DNA of 64,000 nucleotides from a bacterium (lineage in GTDB: Bacteria; Patescibacteriota; Minisyncoccia; Phycocordibacterales; UBA1006), in contig JBAWXN010000001.1 of NCBI GenBank assembly GCA_037144045.1, positions 134,744 to 198,743 of the forward strand. Direction: 5' to 3'. How positions within the stretch are numbered: position 1 is the stretch's first letter; every line of letters begins with the position of its first letter. Below the pieces are notes generated by a model. The model saw nothing but the letters and a program-made list of their open reading frames with translations. It made no database searches and was not told where the DNA came from. Shown piece by piece: positions 2 through 53,678 of the stretch. Both the position numbers and the translations under genes were made by a program.

Positions 2-544
2 CCAGAAATTATAGATGATGTTGAATTTGAAGAACTTGACTGGGTAGGGGACGAGAAAAAAGACAAAGAAAAGCTTAAAAAATTACGAGATGATTTAAAG
101 AAGAGTCAATTTGAATCACGAGACCATTTGACTGCGCTGCAACGAGCACGAGCCGACTATGTGAACTTGAAACGGGAGCTTGATGAAACGCGAGAAGTTA
201 CCAAGAAAAAAACCACTGAAAAGTTGCTTGCAGATTTTCTCCCAACACTTGATAGTTTCGATATGGCAATGGGAAATACGGCGGCTTGGGAAGCAGTAGA
301 TAAAAATTGGCGTATCGGGGTAGAGTTTATCTATGGTCAATTAAAAACAGCGCTTGAAAATAATGGAGTTGCTCCTATTGATCAAGTTGGGGTAGAATTT
401 GATCCTAATAAGCATGAACCTATTGAAACGAAAGAAACCGATGATGTAGACTTTGATCATAAAATCGAACGCATTATTCAGAAAGGATATCAAATGGGTG
501 ATCGAGTGATTCGTCCTGCACGAGTAGTAGTATGGAAAAAATAA
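2..544 (+). CDS. grpE: Nucleotide exchange factor GrpE (5' end outside window)
   Basis: The frame is open from position 2 with no upstream stop in the window. The C-terminal region is GrpE-like (LADFLPTLDSFDMAM ... KGYQMGDRVIRPARVVV). Confidence 0.85.
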   Translation, partial: PEIIDDVEFEELDWVGDEKKDKEKLKKLRDDLKKSQFESRDHLTALQRARADYVNLKRELDETREVTKKKTTEKLLADFLPTLDSFDMAMGNTAAWEAVDKNWRIGVEFIYGQLKTALENNGVAPIDQVGVEFDPNKHEPIETKETDDVDFDHKIERIIQKGYQMGDRVIRPARVVVWKK

Positions 545-566: not shown

Positions 567-1654
567 TGTGCGATAAATGTTACGAGAACAATTTCTGGAG
601 TATTAAATAGTCGTGAGGGAAATGCGGCAAGTCCAAGTCCTGACGAGGTAATGATTGGAGTTGATTCAACTATGTTGAGTCCATACCAGAATCGTCCATA
701 TACTTGTTGAACAATATATTTAAGTGGCCAGAATTGTCCACCGTGCGTATGTCCATGTACCACGAGATCTGCTTGATACTTTGCAAAAAGATCCATATAG
801 CGCGGTTCATGATTTATTATGAACAGAGGTAGTTCAGAATTAATAGGAGCGAGTACCCGATTAATTACTTCAGTTCCTATGGCTTCTTTTTCACGTCCAT
901 AATATTTAAAACCAGCAATCGTGATTCCATTCCAGGTGATAGTTTCATCTTCGAGGGTAGTAATACCGTTATTTCGCATAAGGTTTAAGAACGTAGTGTA
1001 ATCACCATATTCCTCATGGTTTCCTGGAGCCATGAATGTAGGGGCAATTTGTGACCATTTTCTAAATTCTTCTTCGAGTACGTTCCATTTAAGGGTTGCT
1101 CCATCAAATATATCACCTGGCATGAGAATTGCGTCTGGCTTGATTACGTTTAATTGTTTGGTGATGCGGCGTGCTAGGTTGTTATTGTTGGCGATATTAA
1201 ATTGTGGATCAGCAAGTACTGCAATACGTTTTCCGATAAGTGCTGGTTCACTTGTTGCGAGTGTGTAAGGCGTGATCTTGATCCAAGTTCGCTGATAGAT
1301 ACCAAATAATGATGCGATACATGCGACGGTAATCAAAATCCAAGTTCCGGTAATGCGCACTTGAGGATTCTTAAGTTTTCTTGCTACTAGTGCCAGTATT
1401 CCTAAAAGAGGTACTAATACAATGCTGTACAAAATAGTTCCTCCTACAATCCAGGCAAAGAAGTAAACAACCGCTAGTAAAAAGTTTGGGTTTTCTGTTC
1501 GTGACAACATGAGTACTCCCATAAAACCAAGGGCGGTGCCCACACCAATAATAATTCGTTGCCACGGAGTAAATAATTTAAGTGATGCCGAATACGCATA
1601 AATCGCCCCGGTTGCAATAATAAGTGAAAAAATACTAATGAATATGAAAAACAT
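563..1654 (-). CDS. Membrane-anchored metallophosphoesterase (calcineurin-like, YkuE-type)
   Basis: There are about four N-terminal transmembrane helices. The C-terminal domain carries the metallophosphatase motifs GDIFDG, GNHE and GHTHGG. Confidence 0.7.
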   Translation of the reverse strand: MFFIFISIFSLIIATGAIYAYSASLKLFTPWQRIIIGVGTALGFMGVLMLSRTENPNFLLAVVYFFAWIVGGTILYSIVLVPLLGILALVARKLKNPQVRITGTWILITVACIASLFGIYQRTWIKITPYTLATSEPALIGKRIAVLADPQFNIANNNNLARRITKQLNVIKPDAILMPGDIFDGATLKWNVLEEEFRKWSQIAPTFMAPGNHEEYGDYTTFLNLMRNNGITTLEDETITWNGITIAGFKYYGREKEAIGTEVINRVLAPINSELPLFIINHEPRYMDLFAKYQADLVVHGHTHGGQFWPLKYIVQQVYGRFWYGLNIVESTPIITSSGLGLAAFPSRLFNTPEIVLVTFIAQ

Positions 1655-1694
1655 AATCTTATAATAGCAGAAAACGTGAAATAAAAATAAACAG

Positions 1695-2168
1695 GTGTAT
1701 AATACCTATATGCAAACAAAAAACATTATTATTTCACTCATAGTAGGGTGTGTCGTTATAGGGGGAGCGTTTTATGCAGTATTTGGTTCATCACTTAAAA
1801 ATTTAAAACAGGAACCGATCACTGAAACTCCTGCCATTGTTAAAGCGACCGATCAGCGGCCGGTTAAAGCACTAGATGCAAATCCTGCAGCAAAACCTGT
1901 GGTAGCCCCAGTATCGACTTCTAATCCAGTAGTATCTGGGTATACCCTTGCTGATGTTCAAAAACATAACTCTACAACAACATGCTGGTCAGCAGTAAAT
2001 GGTACGGTATATGATTTAACATCATGGGTTAATGCACATCCCGGTGGAAAAGCGGCAATCCTTATGATTTGTGGTAAAGACGGATCTGCGCTTTTTAATG
2101 CGCAACATGGTGGTTCAGGAAAAGTAGCGACTATTTTAGCAAAGTTTAAAATTGGTTCACTTAACTAA
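1695..2168 (+). CDS. Cytochrome b5-like heme/steroid-binding domain protein with an N-terminal TM anchor
   Basis: N-terminal hydrophobic helix. The motif HNSTTTCWSAVNGTVYDLTSWVNAHPGG ... LFNAQHGG resembles a cytochrome b5 heme-binding domain. Confidence 0.5.
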   Translation: MYNTYMQTKNIIISLIVGCVVIGGAFYAVFGSSLKNLKQEPITETPAIVKATDQRPVKALDANPAAKPVVAPVSTSNPVVSGYTLADVQKHNSTTTCWSAVNGTVYDLTSWVNAHPGGKAAILMICGKDGSALFNAQHGGSGKVATILAKFKIGSLN

Positions 2169-25151: not shown

Positions 25152-25211
25152 AAAATAATGCAATTAAGCTTAATCAAGAAGTGGCGCCCATAGAGGCGAC
25201 CACTTTTTTTG

Positions 25212-25283
25212 TGACTCTACTGGGAATCGAACCCAGCTTCCATCCTTGAGAAGGATGTGTCCTAACCGATAGACGATAGAGCC
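25212..25283 (-). tRNA. tRNA-Glu (anticodon CUC)
   Basis: Minus-strand cloverleaf GGCTCTATCGTCTATCGGTTAGGACACATCCTTCTCAAGGATGGAAGCTGGGTTCGATTCCCAGTAGAGTCA. T-loop TTCGATTCC, anticodon loop TTCTCAA. CCA is not encoded. Confidence 0.85.
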
Positions 25284-25427
25284 AAGCTGTTTAACAATAC
25301 TGTAAAAAGGTTTATTTTTCAAGCAGTGTGTGGACCTTCTTCACGAAGTGGAGAGGGTGGATTCCGTAAGGAATCCGGGTGAGGATTTAATGGTTGTTTT
25401 TTCAAGAGACGTGATATAATGGTTTTC

Positions 25428-44993: not shown

Positions 44994-46169
44994 ATGCAAC
45001 AACAAAAAGTCGTTATTATTGGAGGAGGATTTGCCGGGATCCGTACAGCGCTCGATTTAGTAAAAACAGGAACCTGTGAAGTCGTGCTTATTTCACAAAA
45101 TCCAAATTTTGAATACTATCCAGGACTCCATAAAATGATCGGTATTCACGATAGTGTAGTAGTTCAAGTACCCCTCGCAACGATTTTTGAAGGTAAATCA
45201 ATTTCTTTGGTATATGAAAAAGTAATAGGAGTTGATATTCATACTAAAACGGTTACTACAGAACATGCTCCTTATCAGGCTGACTATGTAATTCTTGCTA
45301 TGGGAAGTCAGACTGAATATTTTGGAATTGCTGGATTACCGGAAATGGCATTTGGATTTAAGTCGGTAGCTGAAGCTCGAAAACTGCGTAATCATATTGA
45401 AGACATGTTTGCTAAACACGTGAAGACTGACAAGGCAGAATCAGTGGTGGGGCTCCATATGGTTATTGTAGGTGCAGGTCCCAACGGGGTAGACCTGGCT
45501 GGTGAAATTGCTGCTTTGAACAAATCACTTGCAAAAAAATACGGAGTTATTGAATCACTGATCACAGTCGATCTTATTGAAGCTGCGAGTCGAGTCCTTG
45601 CCATGCTTCCTGAGCCAGTAAGTCATCGGGTGGAAAAACGACTCCGTGACCTTGGGGTAACCGTACTCTGTAATCGTGATCTTAAAAGGCAAGAATCATG
45701 GACTGTTGAACTTGCTGATATGACTATGGGTGCTAAAACGGTAGTATGGACTGCAGGAATTATTACCAATGAGTTAGTGAAGAAAATCGAAGGACTTACG
45801 TTAATGAAAAAAAATCGTGTAGCGGTAGACGAATTTCTTCAGGTGAAAGGAGCTCAAAATATATTTTGTGTGGGCGATGTAGCTGATACTCCTTATGCAG
45901 GACTTGCGCAAACAGCGTTGTATGATGGGGAATATGTAGCATCTGTCATCATGAATAAAATTTCGGGACAAAAATTCCACGCATATACTCCCAAACCTAA
46001 TGCATTTAACATTGGTGTTGGTCCAATGTGGTCAGTCATGCAAGTAGGCTCGTTTGTGTCATATGGATTTTTTCCTTATGTATTTAGATCATTAATTGAT
46101 ATTAAATTTTTCCTTTCTATCCTTCCTGTGAAGCAGGTATGGAAATTGTTTTTCAAAAAAGCATCCTAG
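44994..46169 (+). CDS. NAD(P)/FAD-dependent oxidoreductase, type II NADH dehydrogenase (NDH-2)-like
   Basis: First dinucleotide-binding motif VVIIGGGFAGI and second VIVGAGPNGVDLAGE, in an NDH-2-like two-Rossmann layout. Confidence 0.7.
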   Translation: MQQQKVVIIGGGFAGIRTALDLVKTGTCEVVLISQNPNFEYYPGLHKMIGIHDSVVVQVPLATIFEGKSISLVYEKVIGVDIHTKTVTTEHAPYQADYVILAMGSQTEYFGIAGLPEMAFGFKSVAEARKLRNHIEDMFAKHVKTDKAESVVGLHMVIVGAGPNGVDLAGEIAALNKSLAKKYGVIESLITVDLIEAASRVLAMLPEPVSHRVEKRLRDLGVTVLCNRDLKRQESWTVELADMTMGAKTVVWTAGIITNELVKKIEGLTLMKKNRVAVDEFLQVKGAQNIFCVGDVADTPYAGLAQTALYDGEYVASVIMNKISGQKFHAYTPKPNAFNIGVGPMWSVMQVGSFVSYGFFPYVFRSLIDIKFFLSILPVKQVWKLFFKKAS

Positions 46170-46180
46170 GATGCTTTTTT
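46155..46180. terminator. 26-nt perfect palindrome / bidirectional terminator containing the ndh stop codon
   Basis: AAAAAAGCATCCTAGGATGCTTTTTT. Confidence 0.75.
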
Positions 46181-46182
46181 GA

Positions 46183-46584
46183 TTAAAACGTTTGAGAAAG
46201 TGGTCTTGCTCCCTCTCCCTTTGGGAGAGGGTTGGGGTGAGGGGTTGATAATACGTGTCTGATCTTCTGAATAACGCTTTCTGGATGAGCTCGAAGTTCT
46301 TGGTTCGAAAATCTGAGACAGGTAATACCATATCCAGCAAGGTGTCGGCTTTTAGCAGTATCATAGGCTTGAGTATATTCGTGGTAGGGTCCATCTAGCT
46401 CCACGACAAGCATTTTCTCGTGACAATAAAAATCTACAACATAGTAATCAATTGAATGTTGACGTCTGAATTTATATCCAAGTTTCCTATTTCTGAGTAT
46501 TTCCCAGAGTAATGTTTCTTCAGGGGTGGTGTGACGCCGCAAAGATCTTCTCTTGATTAGTTCTCGTTCAAAGTTCCAGTACAT
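46183..46584 (-). CDS. DUF559 endonuclease-domain protein (Vsr/restriction-endonuclease-like fold), copy 1
   Basis: TPEETLLWEILRNRKLGYKFRRQHSIDYYVVDFYCHEKMLVVELDGPYHE is a typical DUF559 core. The last roughly 20 codons read through the left inverted repeat, so the real C-terminus is uncertain. Confidence 0.7.
   Translation of the reverse strand: MYWNFERELIKRRSLRRHTTPEETLLWEILRNRKLGYKFRRQHSIDYYVVDFYCHEKMLVVELDGPYHEYTQAYDTAKSRHLAGYGITCLRFSNQELRAHPESVIQKIRHVLSTPHPNPLPKGEGARPLSQTF
46211..46246. repeat. Left terminal inverted repeat of DUF559 element 1
   Basis: CCCTCTCCCTTTGGGAGAGGG (itself a palindrome) + TTGGGGTGAGGGGTT. Its reverse complement matches 46660-46694. Confidence 0.8.
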
Positions 46585-46659: not shown

Positions 46660-46694
46660 ACCCCTCACCCCAGCCCTCTCCCAAAGGGAGAGGG
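46660..46694. repeat. Right terminal inverted repeat of DUF559 element 1
   Basis: ACCCCTCACCCCAG + CCCTCTCCCAAAGGGAGAGGG. GC-rich in an AT-rich genome. Confidence 0.8.
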
Positions 46695-46699
46695 AGTAG

Positions 46700-49859: not shown

Positions 49860-52304
49860 TTATTTCCTTTTTTTATCAGCGCTTGCCATAGCAATAAGTG
49901 CAACAACTTCATCGAGTGAAATTTCCATAGGATCAGTACGATCGGGAATGTAAATCCGTTTCATACCTTGCCGAATAAAGTTTCCTGATTTTGATTTCAA
50001 GATCTGGATTTCTTTTTTTGTTTTTGGATGAATACCTACAGTTCGTAGTAATTCAACACCCTTAGGAAGTGATTTAGGACTGTTTAATAATGTAACTGCC
50101 TGATCCAGGGTAATCGTATACGGATCAAACGGTTTTTTAATTGAACGGAAATCACGATTACGTCCTACGTAAGGCCCAAATCGTCCAATGTTGGCGATCA
50201 CAGGTTCGTGGGTTGTGGGATCGTTACCGAGTTCTCGAGGAAGTTCAAGAAGTTTTACTGCAAGTTCCAAAGTCATGTCTTCAGGTTTCATACGTGGTGG
50301 CAAACTTGCACGTCGTGGTCCCGGAAGCGTCTTTGCGGCTGCAATAATTTCTTTTTCTTGTTTTACTTTTTCCTTGTCGGCAGGTGTTTTTTTGTACCCC
50401 TTAGGCCAGGTGCTGAGCTTTGGTATAGGGATTGATTTACCGAGTTGTACATATGGGCCAAATCGTCCTGTAAGGAGGAAAATAGGTAAACCAGATTTTG
50501 GATGAATACCGAACGGTTTTTCATCGCCAACTTCTTGACCATCAATCGTTAAGGCTCCGTCACATTCTGGATAGCGAGTACACGACAAAAACTTTCCAGA
50601 ACGTCCGAGTTTAATTTCCATAGGGGCACCACACTTTGGACAAACGAATTTTGCATCAGCCATTCCAAGGTTGGTAATCTTAGGGATAGATTCTTTTGCA
50701 GTGACGTCAGCAATAAACGGAGTATAAAATTCACTTAAGGTTTTTTTATAGGTTCGTTTTCCTGCAGCAATATCGTCGAGTTTGTCTTCCATATCGGCCG
50801 TAAACGAATCAGAAATATAGTCCATGAAGTTCTGTTCAAGGAATGTTGATACGACATCACCAGTGTCGGTGGGATAGAGGGTACGTCCTTCTTTTTTCAC
50901 ATATTCACGTTCTTCGAGGGTACGCATAATAGATGCATAGGTCGAAGGTCGTCCAATGCCACGTAATTCAAGTTCCTTGATAAGTCCGGCTTCGGTATAG
51001 CGTCCCGGTGGTTGGGTTTGTTTACCGATGGCATCAAGTGATTCAAGTTTCAAAGTGTCACCAATAGTAAGTTTTGGAAGTTCAACGTCTTCACCTCGAG
51101 CAGCTCGATCAACCGTGAGCCATCCAGGAAATAGAAGTCGTGAACCGTTTGCGGTAAAATCAGGAATTTTTCCTGATGCGATATTTGCAACTAATCGTGT
51201 TTTAAGAAGCTTTGCGTCACTCATTTGTGACGAAACGGTCCGTTCCCAAACGAGTCGATAGAGTTCCTTTTGTTCGTCGGTTGCGCCAGCGTGATCAAGG
51301 TTGAAATGTGTAGGACGGATTGCTTCATGAGCTTCTTGAGCATTTTTAGATTTCGTAGCATAGGTTTTAGGTTGTACGTAGTCCTTACCGTATTTTTTCT
51401 CGATCAATCCAAGGATTTGTCCCTGAGCTTGTTTGGAAAGAGTGGTACTATCCGTACGCATATACGTAATATGTCCTGCTTCGTACAAGCGTTGTGCAAC
51501 TTGCATAGTTCTTGATGGTGAAAATCCGAGACGGGTACTGGCAGTTTGCTGCAAGGTTGAAGTTGTAAACGGAGCACGTGCTGCGCGTTTTTGTTCTGAT
51601 TCTTTAATGTCGGTTACTGACCAAGATTCCTTGTTTCCCAGTTCAAGAATGTGATCAACTATTTTTTTATCACGCGGTTCTTCAACACAGGTGAGTTTAA
51701 GGTCTTTATTAAATAGCCCCTCAATAACCCAAAAGTCTTCAGGAACAAATGCGCGAATTTCTCGTTCGCGTTCCATAATGATACGGAGTGCAGGGGATTG
51801 AACGCGCCCTGCTGATAATCCATACCGTACTTTTTTCCAAATGAGTCCTGATAGATCATACCCTACCAGTCGATCGAGTACGCGCCGTGCTTCTTGAGCA
51901 TGTACAAGTTGTTCATCGATTGCTCGTGGGTGTTGTAATGCTTCGGTTACGGCTTCCTTGGTGATTTCATGAAAGGTTGCACGTTTAATAGGAGCCTTGA
52001 TAGTTGAGTCTTTCAGTAGTTCTTGGAGATGCCAAGAAATGGCCTCTCCTTCGCGGTCGGGGTCAGTCGCAAGAATGATTTCATCAGCTTTGCGTGCGAG
52101 AGTTTGCAGTTCCGAAATAACACGACCTTTACCTGCAGAAATTTCATAGCGAGGAATAAATCCGCCGGGAATATCTATGGCGTCTTTGTTTGATTTTGGT
52201 AAATCACGTACATGACCAATAGATGCTCGCACGGTATATTTTCCGTCGAGGTATTTCTCAATCGTTTTTGCTTTTGAAGGGGACTCTACAATCAATAGTT
52301 TCAT
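49860..52304 (-). CDS. topA: DNA topoisomerase I
   Basis: Toprim (MKLLIVESPSKAKTIEKYL ... ATDPDREGE), catalytic Tyr region (ITYMRTDS), a C-terminal zinc ribbon (CPKCGAPM ... CTRYPECDG) and a basic tail. Start at MKLLIV; the ORF track starts at 52358. Confidence 0.95.
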   Translation of the reverse strand: MKLLIVESPSKAKTIEKYLDGKYTVRASIGHVRDLPKSNKDAIDIPGGFIPRYEISAGKGRVISELQTLARKADEIILATDPDREGEAISWHLQELLKDSTIKAPIKRATFHEITKEAVTEALQHPRAIDEQLVHAQEARRVLDRLVGYDLSGLIWKKVRYGLSAGRVQSPALRIIMEREREIRAFVPEDFWVIEGLFNKDLKLTCVEEPRDKKIVDHILELGNKESWSVTDIKESEQKRAARAPFTTSTLQQTASTRLGFSPSRTMQVAQRLYEAGHITYMRTDSTTLSKQAQGQILGLIEKKYGKDYVQPKTYATKSKNAQEAHEAIRPTHFNLDHAGATDEQKELYRLVWERTVSSQMSDAKLLKTRLVANIASGKIPDFTANGSRLLFPGWLTVDRAARGEDVELPKLTIGDTLKLESLDAIGKQTQPPGRYTEAGLIKELELRGIGRPSTYASIMRTLEEREYVKKEGRTLYPTDTGDVVSTFLEQNFMDYISDSFTADMEDKLDDIAAGKRTYKKTLSEFYTPFIADVTAKESIPKITNLGMADAKFVCPKCGAPMEIKLGRSGKFLSCTRYPECDGALTIDGQEVGDEKPFGIHPKSGLPIFLLTGRFGPYVQLGKSIPIPKLSTWPKGYKKTPADKEKVKQEKEIIAAAKTLPGPRRASLPPRMKPEDMTLELAVKLLELPRELGNDPTTHEPVIANIGRFGPYVGRNRDFRSIKKPFDPYTITLDQAVTLLNSPKSLPKGVELLRTVGIHPKTKKEIQILKSKSGNFIRQGMKRIYIPDRTDPMEISLDEVVALIAMASADKKRK

Positions 52305-52350
52305 AAATGTTCTATTGATAACATATAAGTAGGAGTGTTTGCAAATTACT

Positions 52351-52722
52351 TCACCCAATCCTAACCCGGTTCACGCAGTGAACCACCCTCTCCACTAGCG
52401 TGGAGAGGGTTTCCGAATTCTGTATTTCGCTGTTCAAAATTCTAATAGTCTTAATTCCTCGAGTGCTAAAGAATTTACTCCGAACGGAATCATATTCAAC
52501 TCCTTTCTCGGTGGTGTGATGTAGTCCGTCTATTTCTAGAGCTACTTTTTTTGAGTGGCAGTAGAAATCTACAATATAGTAACCAATACTTACTTGTCTA
52601 CGCCATTTAAGGCCAGATTTATTTTTTCTCAGTAGTTGCCACATAGTCTCTTCCTCGGGTGTTTGTTTTTTTCTGAGCTGTCTACGTTTTTTTAAATTTG
52701 TACCATCATTAATAAGTTTCAT
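52351..52722 (-). CDS. DUF559 endonuclease-domain protein, copy 2 (paralog of 46183..46584)
   Basis: TPEEETMWQLLRKNKSGLKWRRQVSIGYYIVDFYCHSKKVALEIDGLHH aligns with copy 1 at about 45% identity. Start taken at MKLINDG; the ORF track extends to 52779 through the right IR. The C-terminus reads through the left IR. Confidence 0.7.
   Translation of the reverse strand: MKLINDGTNLKKRRQLRKKQTPEEETMWQLLRKNKSGLKWRRQVSIGYYIVDFYCHSKKVALEIDGLHHTTEKGVEYDSVRSKFFSTRGIKTIRILNSEIQNSETLSTLVERVVHCVNRVRIG
52352..52410. repeat. Left terminal inverted repeat of DUF559 element 2
   Basis: CACCCAATCCTAACCCGG + GGTTCACGCAGTGAACC (palindrome) + ACCCTCTCCACTAGCGTGGAGAGGGT (palindrome). Inverted copy at 52748-52806. Confidence 0.8.
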
Positions 52723-52747
52723 AGTAGTTATAGAGCTAATTATTTGG

Positions 52748-52806
52748 ACCCTCTCCACGCTAGTGGAGAGGGTGGTCACCGCAGGTGACCGGGTGAGGAT
52801 TGGGTG
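52748..52806. repeat. Right terminal inverted repeat of DUF559 element 2
   Basis: ACCCTCTCCACGCTAGTGGAGAGGGT + GGTCACCGCAGGTGACC + GGGTGAGGATTGGGTG. Confidence 0.8.
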
Positions 52807-52811
52807 AAGTA

Positions 52812-53678
52812 CTACCTCCTCCTAACCACTCCTTCAGACTCACAAATAAACCCCTTCACCTCCATTTGAGTAATAAGTACCGTTGCTTTATGAATAGGGA
52901 GGTTTAGTTTTCGTATAAGGTCACCACGTGATTGGGGGTGCGTAAGGAGTTCAATAATGCGTTGTTCATCGGGATTGCATTGTGAAAACAGATCAAGCAT
53001 CGGCTGTTCAGTAACCTGAAACCCAAGTGCTTCGAGGATGTGCTCCGATGTTGTCACGGGTGTTGCGCCCATGCGAATAAGTTCGTTGGGTCCCTCGGAT
53101 TGTTGACTGAACATACTTCCGGGAACTGCAAGTACTTCGCGATTGTACTCTGTGGCAAGGCGCGCAGTAATACGAGTACCTGATTTATGGGTTGCTTCTA
53201 TGACCAGGGTTGCATGAGATAATCCTGCCAAGAGGCGATTACGTGCAGGGAATAACCAGTCGTTGGTTTTTTGATGTTCAGTAAATTCACTTACGAGGCA
53301 ACCACCAGATTTGAGAATTTTTTCAGCGAGGAACCTATTTGCACGCGGATAAATTATTTTTTCATCAAGTCCGGATCCTGGAAATGCAATAGTAGTTATT
53401 CCAATTTCAAGAGCTGCCTCATGGGCGATCGTATCAATACCGAGTGCGAGCCCTGAAACAATTACGATAGGGTATCCTCGCAATCCTTGAATCAGTTGTT
53501 TGCATGCTGCAAGTCCATATGATGAGTGGTTACGTGAACCAACAATAGTGAGAAATACTAATTTCTCATGATTAGGAAAAGTGCCACGAATCGTGAGTCT
53601 TCGAGGTGGTTGTGGGATATGTGCAAATAAGTCATTAATCGTACTCTCGGGTAGATAGTGGCAAGGGTAATCTTCCAT
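52812..53678 (-). CDS. dprA: DNA processing protein DprA (Smf)
   Basis: Rossmann-like DprA core (VIVSGLALGIDTIAHEAAL ... ATLVIEA ... SGTRITARLATEYNREVLAVPG) plus a C-terminal winged-helix-like domain. Confidence 0.85.
   Translation of the reverse strand: MEDYPCHYLPESTINDLFAHIPQPPRRLTIRGTFPNHEKLVFLTIVGSRNHSSYGLAACKQLIQGLRGYPIVIVSGLALGIDTIAHEAALEIGITTIAFPGSGLDEKIIYPRANRFLAEKILKSGGCLVSEFTEHQKTNDWLFPARNRLLAGLSHATLVIEATHKSGTRITARLATEYNREVLAVPGSMFSQQSEGPNELIRMGATPVTTSEHILEALGFQVTEQPMLDLFSQCNPDEQRIIELLTHPQSRGDLIRKLNLPIHKATVLITQMEVKGFICESEGVVRRR

Follow-up and report, generated by a model that had tools for sequence, protein, structure and literature searches.

A DUF559 gene enclosed by triplex-motif repeats in a patescibacterial genome: a candidate REP/RAYT-like pairing of a Vsr-fold nuclease family with a dispersed repeat

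Why should a short gene of the DUF559 family sit between two nearly identical inverted repeats, in the narrow interval separating topA from dprA? The question is raised by a 64,000-nt stretch of a genome of the Patescibacteriota (GenBank assembly GCA_037144045.1, contig JBAWXN010000001.1, positions 134,744 to 198,743), hereafter the window, which has a G+C content of 39.5% and holds two such units, element 1 and element 2. Element 2 is the subject of this report. It may well belong to a widespread pair, in which a DUF559 nuclease of Vsr fold and triplex-motif repeats form a partnership resembling that of the repetitive extragenic palindrome (REP) and the REP-associated tyrosine transposase (RAYT), an answer that we regard as evenly poised. 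To our knowledge, DUF559 is a very large family with no known function.

The preliminary description of the locus, made from the sequence alone, proposed a second DUF559 element of the same architecture as the first, with 59-bp terminal inverted repeats. The sequences quoted there are all present at their coordinates, and the inverted repeat of element 2 is real, with arms that measure 64 nt rather than 59. The parts of element 2, in window coordinates, are as follows.

52347-52410, no strand assigned: element 2 arm located 3' of the gene (left on the plus strand), 64 nt, begins TACTT
52352-52367: C-strand of the 3' arm
52368-52384: hairpin 2 of the 3' arm, GGTTCAC-GCA-GTGAACC
52385-52410: hairpin 1 of the 3' arm
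52351-52722, minus strand: element 2 DUF559 (Vsr-fold, predicted endonuclease) gene, 123 aa plus stop codon; Pfam DUF559 E = 6.6e-25
52748-52811, no strand assigned: element 2 arm located 5' of the gene (right on the plus strand), 64 nt, from an inverted-repeat search
52748-52773: hairpin 1 of the 5' arm, ACCCTCTCCAC-GCTA-GTGGAGAGGGT
52774-52790: hairpin 2 of the 5' arm, GGTCACC-GCA-GGTGACC
52791-52806: G-strand of the 5' arm, GGGTGAGGATTGGGTG, then AAGTA

The gene lies where it had been placed, in a co-directional minus-strand array of dprA (52812-53678), the DUF559 gene and topA (49860-52304), and an identical 123-aa gene call (P0001) stands in the public entry for the 273,932-bp source contig. 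Its product scores 87.5 bits against Pfam DUF559 (PF04480; gathering cut-off 20.6). From the gene outwards, each arm presents hairpin 1, hairpin 2 and a G-rich strand, with the C-rich complement on the other arm. Hairpin 1 has an 11-bp stem of pyrimidine/purine type, ACCCTCTCCAC-NNNN-GTGGAGAGGGT, hairpin 2 has a 7-bp stem and a 3-nt loop, and the G-rich strand, GGGT(G/T)AGGATTGGGTG, mirrors the purine arm of hairpin 1. Outside hairpin 2 the two arms are identical at 46 of 47 positions; within it, nine positions differ and the 7-bp stem is formed in both. The gene does run through the left repeat, its stop codon (52351-52353) and last 19 codons (residues 105-123) being contained in the 3' arm.

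Folded as single-stranded DNA, each arm of element 2 adopts two hairpins with a free energy of -18 to -20 kcal/mol (z = -5.6 to -6.3; for the 5' arm, -19.7 kcal/mol and z = -5.6), a stability matched by none of 200 shuffles. Across the 64-kb window, pyrimidine-run hairpins that pair perfectly over at least 7 bp are confined to the four arms of elements 1 and 2, against 0.04 expected from shuffles, and CCCTCTCCAC is found five times at no more than one mismatch, against 1.4 expected. No known RNA family, introns included, reaches its threshold on element 2. A sub-threshold Rfam match of the left arm (52364-52411, minus strand) to Chlorobi-1, scoring 17.5 bits where the gathering score is 50 (E = 0.5), was noticed in passing, and this orphan motif may be a repeat related to the element 2 arm.

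To what class of repeat do the arms belong? BoxC repeats, also called TM_ECO, have been known in E. coli for decades. In the triplex motif (TM), a C-rich and a G-rich arm enclose a loop, and a further loop of 3 nt leads on to another G-rich block, which mirrors the G-rich arm; the published pattern is CCCTCNCCC-N3-6-GGGNGAGGG-N3-GGGNGAGGG; triplex formation has been demonstrated in vitro for the E. coli motif, and a census counted 3610 copies in 262 proteobacterial genomes (Holder et al. 2015, PMC4666352). The same authors, who cite earlier work on the motif by Hoyne & Maher and by Bachellier et al., state that mobility functions near TM_ECO were never found. Element 1 supplies the strict form in the window, and a partly degenerate arm of element 2 type stands alone elsewhere.

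46183-46584, minus strand: element 1 DUF559 gene (P0025), 133 aa; from tblastn, the open reading frame (ORF) list and hmmsearch, E = 4e-45
46209-46245, no strand assigned: element 1 arm located 3' of its gene, a canonical TM_ECO motif when read on the plus strand
46660-46696, no strand assigned: element 1 arm located 5' of its gene, canonical TM_ECO motif, hairpin outermost
25334-25392, plus strand: solo element-2-type arm, partly degenerate; fold z = -4.1

Both element 1 arms match the TM_ECO pattern exactly, at 46211-46243 (plus strand) and 46662-46694 (minus strand), and a search with the 37-nt arm gives a median of 17 places per E. coli genome, with identity reaching 97% across 35 nt. Within 52347-52811 the strict pattern has no match, because the element 2 arms have 8-nt stems and a 20-nt second loop that contains hairpin 2; they are therefore, by their sequence, a variant of the TM_ECO class and not a strict member. 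The mirror rule holds in them, GGAGAGGG being mirrored by GGGTGAGG with 8 of 8 triads allowed (G.GC, A.AT, T.AT). ViennaRNA models no triplexes, and a triplex in the element 2 arms is predicted from this pattern. Written as a pattern, an element-2-type arm reads GGAGAGGGTGG-N11-16-CCGGGTKAGGATT. The arms had been taken for terminal inverted repeats specific to their elements; they fall instead into a known dispersed class, which also occurs solo, without a DUF559 gene.

The two elements of the window are built from these modules in different ways. Each element 1 arm is 37 nt long, with the hairpin outermost, the G/C-strand beside the gene and no hairpin 2. On the gene (minus) strand, its 5' arm runs through the hairpin CCCTCTCCC-TTT-GGGAGAGGG, then CTG, then GGGTGAGGG, and the tail of the element 1 protein, PHPNPLPKGEGA..., is arm-encoded. 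The module order of element 2 is the reverse of this, and the supposed common architecture does not hold, the order being flipped and hairpin 2 absent from element 1. The two proteins share 38-41.5% identity, below the 45% first given. What does stand is a single real family, a DUF559 gene with inverted structured repeats of shared grammar, which is seen again in the 80 loci described below.

In the solo arm at 25334-25392, hairpin 1 includes two G-T pairs, both substitutions being C-to-T changes that leave G-T wobbles; hairpin 2 reads GGATTCC-GTAA-GGAATCC and the G-strand GGGTGAGGATTTAATG. It is flanked by tRNA-Glu (25211-25283, minus strand) and an ftsE-like ABC ATPase gene (from 25419), with no DUF559 gene nearby. 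A third DUF559 remnant suspected at window positions 281-433 (tblastn E = 0.04) was rejected as spurious, having no hidden Markov model match.

Is the pairing of gene and repeat peculiar to this window? The 80 loci compared are the best matches from a scan with a DUF559 alignment of one genome per GTDB species, and they come from Patescibacteria, Cyanobacteria, Chloroflexota, Clostridia, Bacteroidota, Proteobacteria, Planctomycetota and others. Across these phyla the association between triplex-motif repeats and DUF559 genes is strong and oriented. When the 250 bp upstream of the DUF559 domain were compared with the 250 bp downstream, with 258 genes of the same loci as controls, the best flanking inverted repeat lay at or above the 99th percentile of controls in 47 of the 80 loci, and the median score was 32.5 at DUF559 versus 18 in controls. 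Pyrimidine-run hairpins reach 4.10 per kb in the 200 bp adjoining the domain ends, versus 0.11 per kb elsewhere in the same loci, a 37-fold enrichment; a hairpin is present at both ends in 48 loci, at one end in 26 and at neither in six, so that 74 of 80 carry at least one.

The sequence of the repeats varies by lineage (CCCTCTCC, CCCCTCC, CTCTCCC, CCTTCCC and others) and their grammar is constant. Where an asymmetric purine arm has a G-strand nearby, the better fit to that strand is given by a mirror of the arm in 109 cases and by a direct copy in 15, with 41 ties. The hairpin is outermost, as in element 1, in 20 of the 80 loci, and innermost, as in element 2, in at least eight. An extra hairpin 2 appears in Clostridia, Saccharibacteria, Sphingomicrobium and some viral contigs, with compensatory differences between arms. 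Farther than 220 bp from the gene, 24 of 54 hairpins carry the 7-nt core of the flanking arms of their own locus, versus 3.1 expected. Ubiquitous REP-like repeats unrelated to DUF559, the alternative that the preliminary description had allowed for, do not describe these data, since the repeats are tightly linked to DUF559. No paper connecting DUF559 or ycjD with BoxC/TM repeats was found in a literature search that excluded most subscription journals.

Several further observations were made at DUF559 loci. On viral contigs, several of 13 DUF559 loci show the same repeat grammar; a phage origin was considered and set aside, with only those 13 relatives found in 2.9 million viral contigs. Tandem arrays or nested repeat pairs, similar to bacterial interspersed mosaic elements, flank the DUF559 gene in L055 (3500-3760), L038 (3740-3930) and L027 (4340-4460), in place of a single repeat on either side. 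The repeat at the gene's 3' end is framed by a perfect 23-bp direct repeat duplicating the last codons in L050 (4302-4381; AAACAGTATCTCGTGCCAACGAG), and likewise in E. coli K-12, L005 (NC_000913.3 1349800-1352800), at 1537-1665 (GAATATTCTCCAGCACCGTCTCC), two unrelated loci that are the sole such cases among about 200 hairpins.

Twelve element-2-type arms were aligned: those of the window and of three orthologous loci, together with three solo copies found in other metagenomes. Among them, hairpin 1 and the G-strand hardly vary. In hairpin 2, four of the seven pairs change on both sides and 96% of cells are paired, with a covariation score of 0.281 versus 0.105 in shuffles (equalled by 0 of 500), and in slid controls pairing falls to about 45%. 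Hairpin 2 is thus a selected structure, conserved by pairing and not by sequence. One-sided changes are few, and all four of them are G-T wobbles on the G-strand-bearing strand; this hints that this strand is the one that folds, although four of four is a small count.

The loop of the same hairpin records a different kind of change. In the window, the hairpin-2 loop of the 3' arm reads TGC on the gene strand, versus GCA in all three orthologs, the stem being unchanged (window 52368-52384; L001 10310-10376, L002 412-478, L093 3685-3751). This difference is a hairpin loop inversion, of the kind that hairpin-mediated template switching produces. Across orthologs, identity is 92-98% in the arms, versus 83% in the ORFs and 55-77% in the spacers between arm and start codon. 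The 5' arm of element 2 is 91.7% identical over four orthologous loci, with 55% in the adjacent spacer, and its 3' arm 93.0%; the 5' arm of element 1 reaches 98.2%. In element 2 the non-coding 5' arm equals the coding 3' arm in conservation, and in both elements the arms are the most constrained part, above the gene. In L002, the outer G-strand module of the 3' arm contains a 22-nt insertion that duplicates GATTGGGT (alignment A1, columns 501-522), and the outer module of the 5' arm has diverged to CCTTATTTAATCC.

How long have the elements been in place? The relatives compared have housekeeping proteins 93-97% identical. Element 2 occupies the identical dprA-topA site in L001, L002 and L093, and element 1 the identical site between the genes for uracil-DNA glycosylase (UDG) and a pyridine-nucleotide oxidoreductase in L087-L094. 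The orientation of the gene is constant, at four orthologous loci for element 2 and at all loci for element 1. The synonymous divergence (dS) of the DUF559 gene, about 0.5-0.85, is close to that of neighbouring genes, and the ratio of nonsynonymous to synonymous divergence (dN/dS) is 0.12-0.29 for the element 2 gene and 0.16-0.30 for that of element 1. Each arm retains its own hairpin 2 sequence in all orthologs, which means that the arms are not being exchanged. Judged by these comparisons, both elements are old, vertically inherited residents under purifying selection.

Element 1 is missing from L001. It is present in two ingroup genomes and in the more distant L092, which UDG and oxidoreductase identity place as the outgroup, and the absence of element 1 from L001 is therefore best read as a secondary loss. 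In L001 two convergent genes end 9 bp apart where element 1 and a neighbouring palindrome are missing. The possibility that L001 preserves an empty site, proving the insertion of element 1, was rejected: the gap is imprecise and removes an extra ~60 bp, terminator included, and loss is favoured. The palindrome itself (window 46153-46182) is perfect, 15+15 (TCAAAAAAGCATCCT/AGGATGCTTTTTTGA), resembles a bidirectional terminator and overlaps the oxidoreductase stop codon; it is kept in L092 and L093 and gone together with element 1 in L001.

Three solo element-2-type arms were found in a scan of Joint Genome Institute metagenomes, drawn from samples other than those holding the relatives of the window. 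One of them lies at 1062-1128 of L097, a 2.7-kb metagenome contig, inside a 295-aa ORF (815-1699, minus strand), and may be an in-frame insertion of the repeat alone.

What does the gene encode? Searched against the Protein Data Bank (PDB), the family profile matches 3HRL (E = 1.7e-32) and the catalytic domain of I-Bth0305I (E = 4.4e-7). The AlphaFold2 model of the element 2 protein has a pLDDT (predicted local distance difference test) score of 87, and its best PDB matches by Foldseek are 3HRL, 3R3P (I-Bth0305I, probability 1.00), 1CW0 and 1VSR. The protein is accordingly modelled as a Vsr-like alpha/beta fold, with nuclease activity predicted. Among 24-40 homologs, both window proteins included, D52, E63, G66 and D78 are invariant, and D65, H69 and R81 are present in at least 90%. 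The 3' arm encodes almost all of the C-terminal helix of the model (residues 103-118), a helix that aligns with the last one of those homologs whose genes stop before their repeat; the 3' repeat of element 2 thus doubles as coding sequence. Defence-system models (PADLOC) gave marginal matches at best, with E = 1.7e-4 or weaker. The DUF559 fold also matches, in Foldseek, several mitochondrial-ribosome proteins of Toxoplasma and Tetrahymena, in agreement with a preprint reporting DUF559-like domains in Plasmodium proteins.

Can the unit move as a whole? In about 20 of the 80 loci, the DUF559 domain and its arms are embedded in frame in long ORFs, among them type I restriction-modification genes from many phyla. 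Seven such cassettes lie in HsdM (L010, L023, L024, L031, L050, L054, L059), and all seven split the protein at one loop of the N6_Mtase domain, between '..QIPAxLWF..' and '..ILFIDAR..'. Another six lie in HsdR, between the nuclease and ATPase domains (L011, L035, L038, L044, L070, L077), at two or more different positions, and L032 holds a cassette in an N6_Mtase protein. Within HsdM and HsdR the arms are translated as PSPxxPLPxGEG / SPSGRG linkers.

The clearest case is the 661-aa HsdM of Thiohalomonas (P0146): over 100 HsdM proteins that are 85-91% identical to it have no insert and are 511-514 aa long. About eight residues of the loop give way to the cassette, where relatives have an ordinary NNGHPRKG loop; the mapping uses these close homologs, E. 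coli EcoKI HsdM (23% identity) being too divergent for it. The site in the relatives' hsdM has no TM pair, and the arms therefore arrived together with the gene. From this comparison P0146 represents a recent one-piece insertion of arm, gene and arm into a repeat-free site. The preliminary description's family of mobile or homing units gains support from such whole-unit insertion and finds none in the lineage of the window, where there is no sign of recent movement.

The E. coli member of the family, ycjD, connects these units with the published repeats. In E. coli K-12, a TM of the modal type lies 168 bp downstream of ycjD, and a degenerate TM hairpin lies over its stop codon. The gene is single-copy in 3378 of 5426 complete E. 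coli genomes (62%). A chimeric query of ycjD and TM was run against these, and 60 genomes were sampled evenly along the ranking: matching places number 14-30 in the 37 with ycjD (median 22, the ycjD place included) and 1-20 in the 23 without it (median 5). Published TM counts by phylogroup point the same way, at 1-2 in B2, 19-30 in A/B1/C and 6-15 in D/E/F, and ycjD is reported in phylogroups A, B1 and C and two sequence types only (PMC12817139). In phylogroup B2, eefRABCD stands in place of ycjD.

How might gene and repeat be connected? In the reading that we put forward, the nuclease would recognise the folded repeat, as hairpin or triplex, on the G-strand-bearing strand and nick that strand. 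Nicks of this kind would cause the repeats to be copied, converted or rearranged, with gene conversion as the means of the second, and the whole arm-gene-arm cassette would occasionally be moved, including in frame into hsdM and hsdR. By acting on the folded repeat, the nuclease would thus spread or maintain it. A broader form of the proposal is possible and more doubtful: DUF559 proteins, YcjD among them, could be the long-missing partner enzymes of BoxC/TM_ECO, structure-specific nickases that create, maintain and rearrange the repeats, and so constitute a second, mechanistically distinct REP/RAYT-like system across phyla, with a cassette able to hop in frame into restriction-modification genes.

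Several points weigh against this proposal. Nothing moved in the lineage of the window: the sites are fixed in all relatives and the sole difference is a loss. The six loci without a hairpin and the 26 with one at a single end fit it less well, and the 80 loci were picked as best matches to one sequence pattern, which means that one DUF559 subfamily was sampled. The two arm orientations, hairpin out and hairpin in, are not covered by one simple cleavage model. In E. coli, the correlation between ycjD and TM counts is confounded by phylogeny, and TMs persist without ycjD, at up to ~20 places, so that their upkeep does not require the gene. Because the 3' arm of element 2 doubles as coding sequence, part of its conservation may reflect constraint on the protein. 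Finally, binding or cutting of the repeats by DUF559 is something we infer.

Four rival explanations were weighed, and each accounts for less of the evidence than the REP/RAYT-like reading. The first, to which we give a small chance, is a selfish gene of the homing type: a gene-less TM pair, convergent or divergent, would be the target, the nuclease would cut it, the gene would be copied into the spacer by repair, and the TMs, now split to its flanks, would protect the site. DUF559 indeed shares homology with the catalytic domain of I-Bth0305I, a proven homing endonuclease, the cassette shows clean presence and absence in hsdM, and gene-less TM pairs, in both orientations and with spacers of 16-60 nt, are known in E. 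coli K-12 (Table 1, PMC4666352). Yet the cassette-free hsdM and hsdR sites hold no TM pair, which is the proposed target. Element 2 has no intron or intein context, intein features having been looked for there and none found, and the gene is kept undegraded at fixed sites under purifying selection over a dS of about 0.5-0.9, which is unusual for a fixed homing gene.

A slim chance is left to arms that regulate or insulate in cis. The hairpins, or one long stem in a read-through RNA, would silence, stabilise or insulate a potentially toxic gene, or the arms would act as autoregulatory operators, with no mobility involved. Several local features fit: the arms are conserved above the gene, the 5' non-coding arm equally with the 3' coding arm; the hairpins are stable and hairpin 2 covaries; the 3' arm overlaps the stop codon; and read-through is likely in the co-directional dprA-DUF559-topA array. 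The arms are not, however, intrinsic terminators, since the sequences after them, CCAAATAA and AATTTGCA, contain no T-run, and terminator-like sites number 0 in 52150-52950. The mirror rule, the distant solo copies and the translated in-frame arms of hsdM and hsdR are also left unexplained.

That DUF559 is a host caretaker, a nuclease for repair or structure processing which guards the genome against triplex- or hairpin-forming repeats and beside which these only accumulate in dispensable intergenic DNA, is improbable. A Vsr-like fold, purifying selection and vertical inheritance would suit such a role, and TM loci have been reported to be unstable (PMC4666352). Passive accumulation, however, does not explain the 37-fold enrichment, the inverted pairs found at both ends in 48 of 80 loci or conservation of the arms above the gene, and it leaves the joint insertion of arms and gene into hsdM unexplained. 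Very improbable, lastly, is an invertible switch in which the arms are recombination sites flipping the DUF559 segment by programmed inversion: "DUF559 domain-containing protein" is 14-fold enriched among the predicted programmed-inversion targets of an inverted-repeat survey that gave no explanation (PMC9881135), arms of 37-64 nt are long enough for recombination and the hairpin-2 loop is inverted between the window and its orthologs, but the orientation of both elements is constant in all orthologous loci, each arm has kept its own hairpin 2, no recombinase gene lies near element 2, and flipping a gene together with its own signals would alter nothing obvious.

The linkage of DUF559 to the repeats offers a candidate explanation for both an orphan repeat class and a nuclease family. 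If the REP/RAYT-like reading is right, it would provide one of the few examples in which a selfish or domesticated nuclease takes a non-B DNA structure as its recognition element, and it would account for the flagging of DUF559 as an inversion target in inverted-repeat surveys. The in-frame cassettes in hsdM and hsdR could interfere with, or modulate, restriction-modification systems.

Which known systems does element 2 resemble? Miniature inverted-repeat transposable elements (MITEs) and insertion sequence (IS) elements have terminal inverted repeats, and the Rickettsia palindromic elements are in-frame, translated insertions in protein-coding genes. Element 2 shares inverted ends with the former, and the in-frame cassettes share with the latter their translation as an extra peptide. 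Unlike MITEs and IS elements, element 2 has no transposase gene among its neighbours and no transposase in the DUF559 protein itself, the arms of the window show no target-site duplication (no flanking direct repeat of at least 10 nt at any arm), and the arms belong to a dispersed repeat family. With Vsr endonuclease the DUF559 protein shares the fold and the region of the metal site. It differs in its remote sequence similarity, in having no cytosine methyltransferase gene adjoining element 2, and in a context that is defined here by the repeat pair.

The likeness to I-Bth0305I and the EDxHD homing endonucleases (PDB 3R3P) lies in a homologous catalytic fold, in the insertion of a related cassette into a conserved gene and in a selfish-element flavour. 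Here, in contrast, there is neither group I intron nor intein and no extra DNA-binding domain, and the gene has structured inverted repeats on its flanks and is a long-term resident at fixed sites. The arms are closer to TM_ECO/BoxC: those of element 1 fit the pattern, those of element 2 retain the hairpin and the mirrored G-strand, and inverted pairs occur in E. coli too. The differences are the 17-nt hairpin that element 2 carries where a 3-nt second loop is expected, the host, an AT-rich uncultivated bacterium and not a proteobacterium, and the gene, since published work on the motif found no enzyme or mobility gene associated with it, whereas here the repeats bracket a gene of a nuclease family.

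The REP/REPIN-RAYT system, reportedly treated by Nunvar in 2010, by Bertels and Rainey in 2011 and by Bertels, Gallie and Rainey in 2017, offers the fullest comparison. Both it and element 2 have a single-copy, vertically inherited enzyme gene under purifying selection between inverted, short, GC-rich palindromic repeats; in both, the repeat is dispersed in the genome, alone or as inverted pairs, and paralogs of the gene retain their own variants. The enzyme here is of the Vsr-fold PD-(D/E)XK type, however, and not an HUH/Y1 (IS200/IS605-like) transposase, the repeat adds a mirror G-strand, and with it a triplex grammar, to the hairpin, and the cassette occurs in frame inside genes. In conclusion, although no member of that family, element 2 would, by analogy, find its closest functional counterpart in REP/RAYT.

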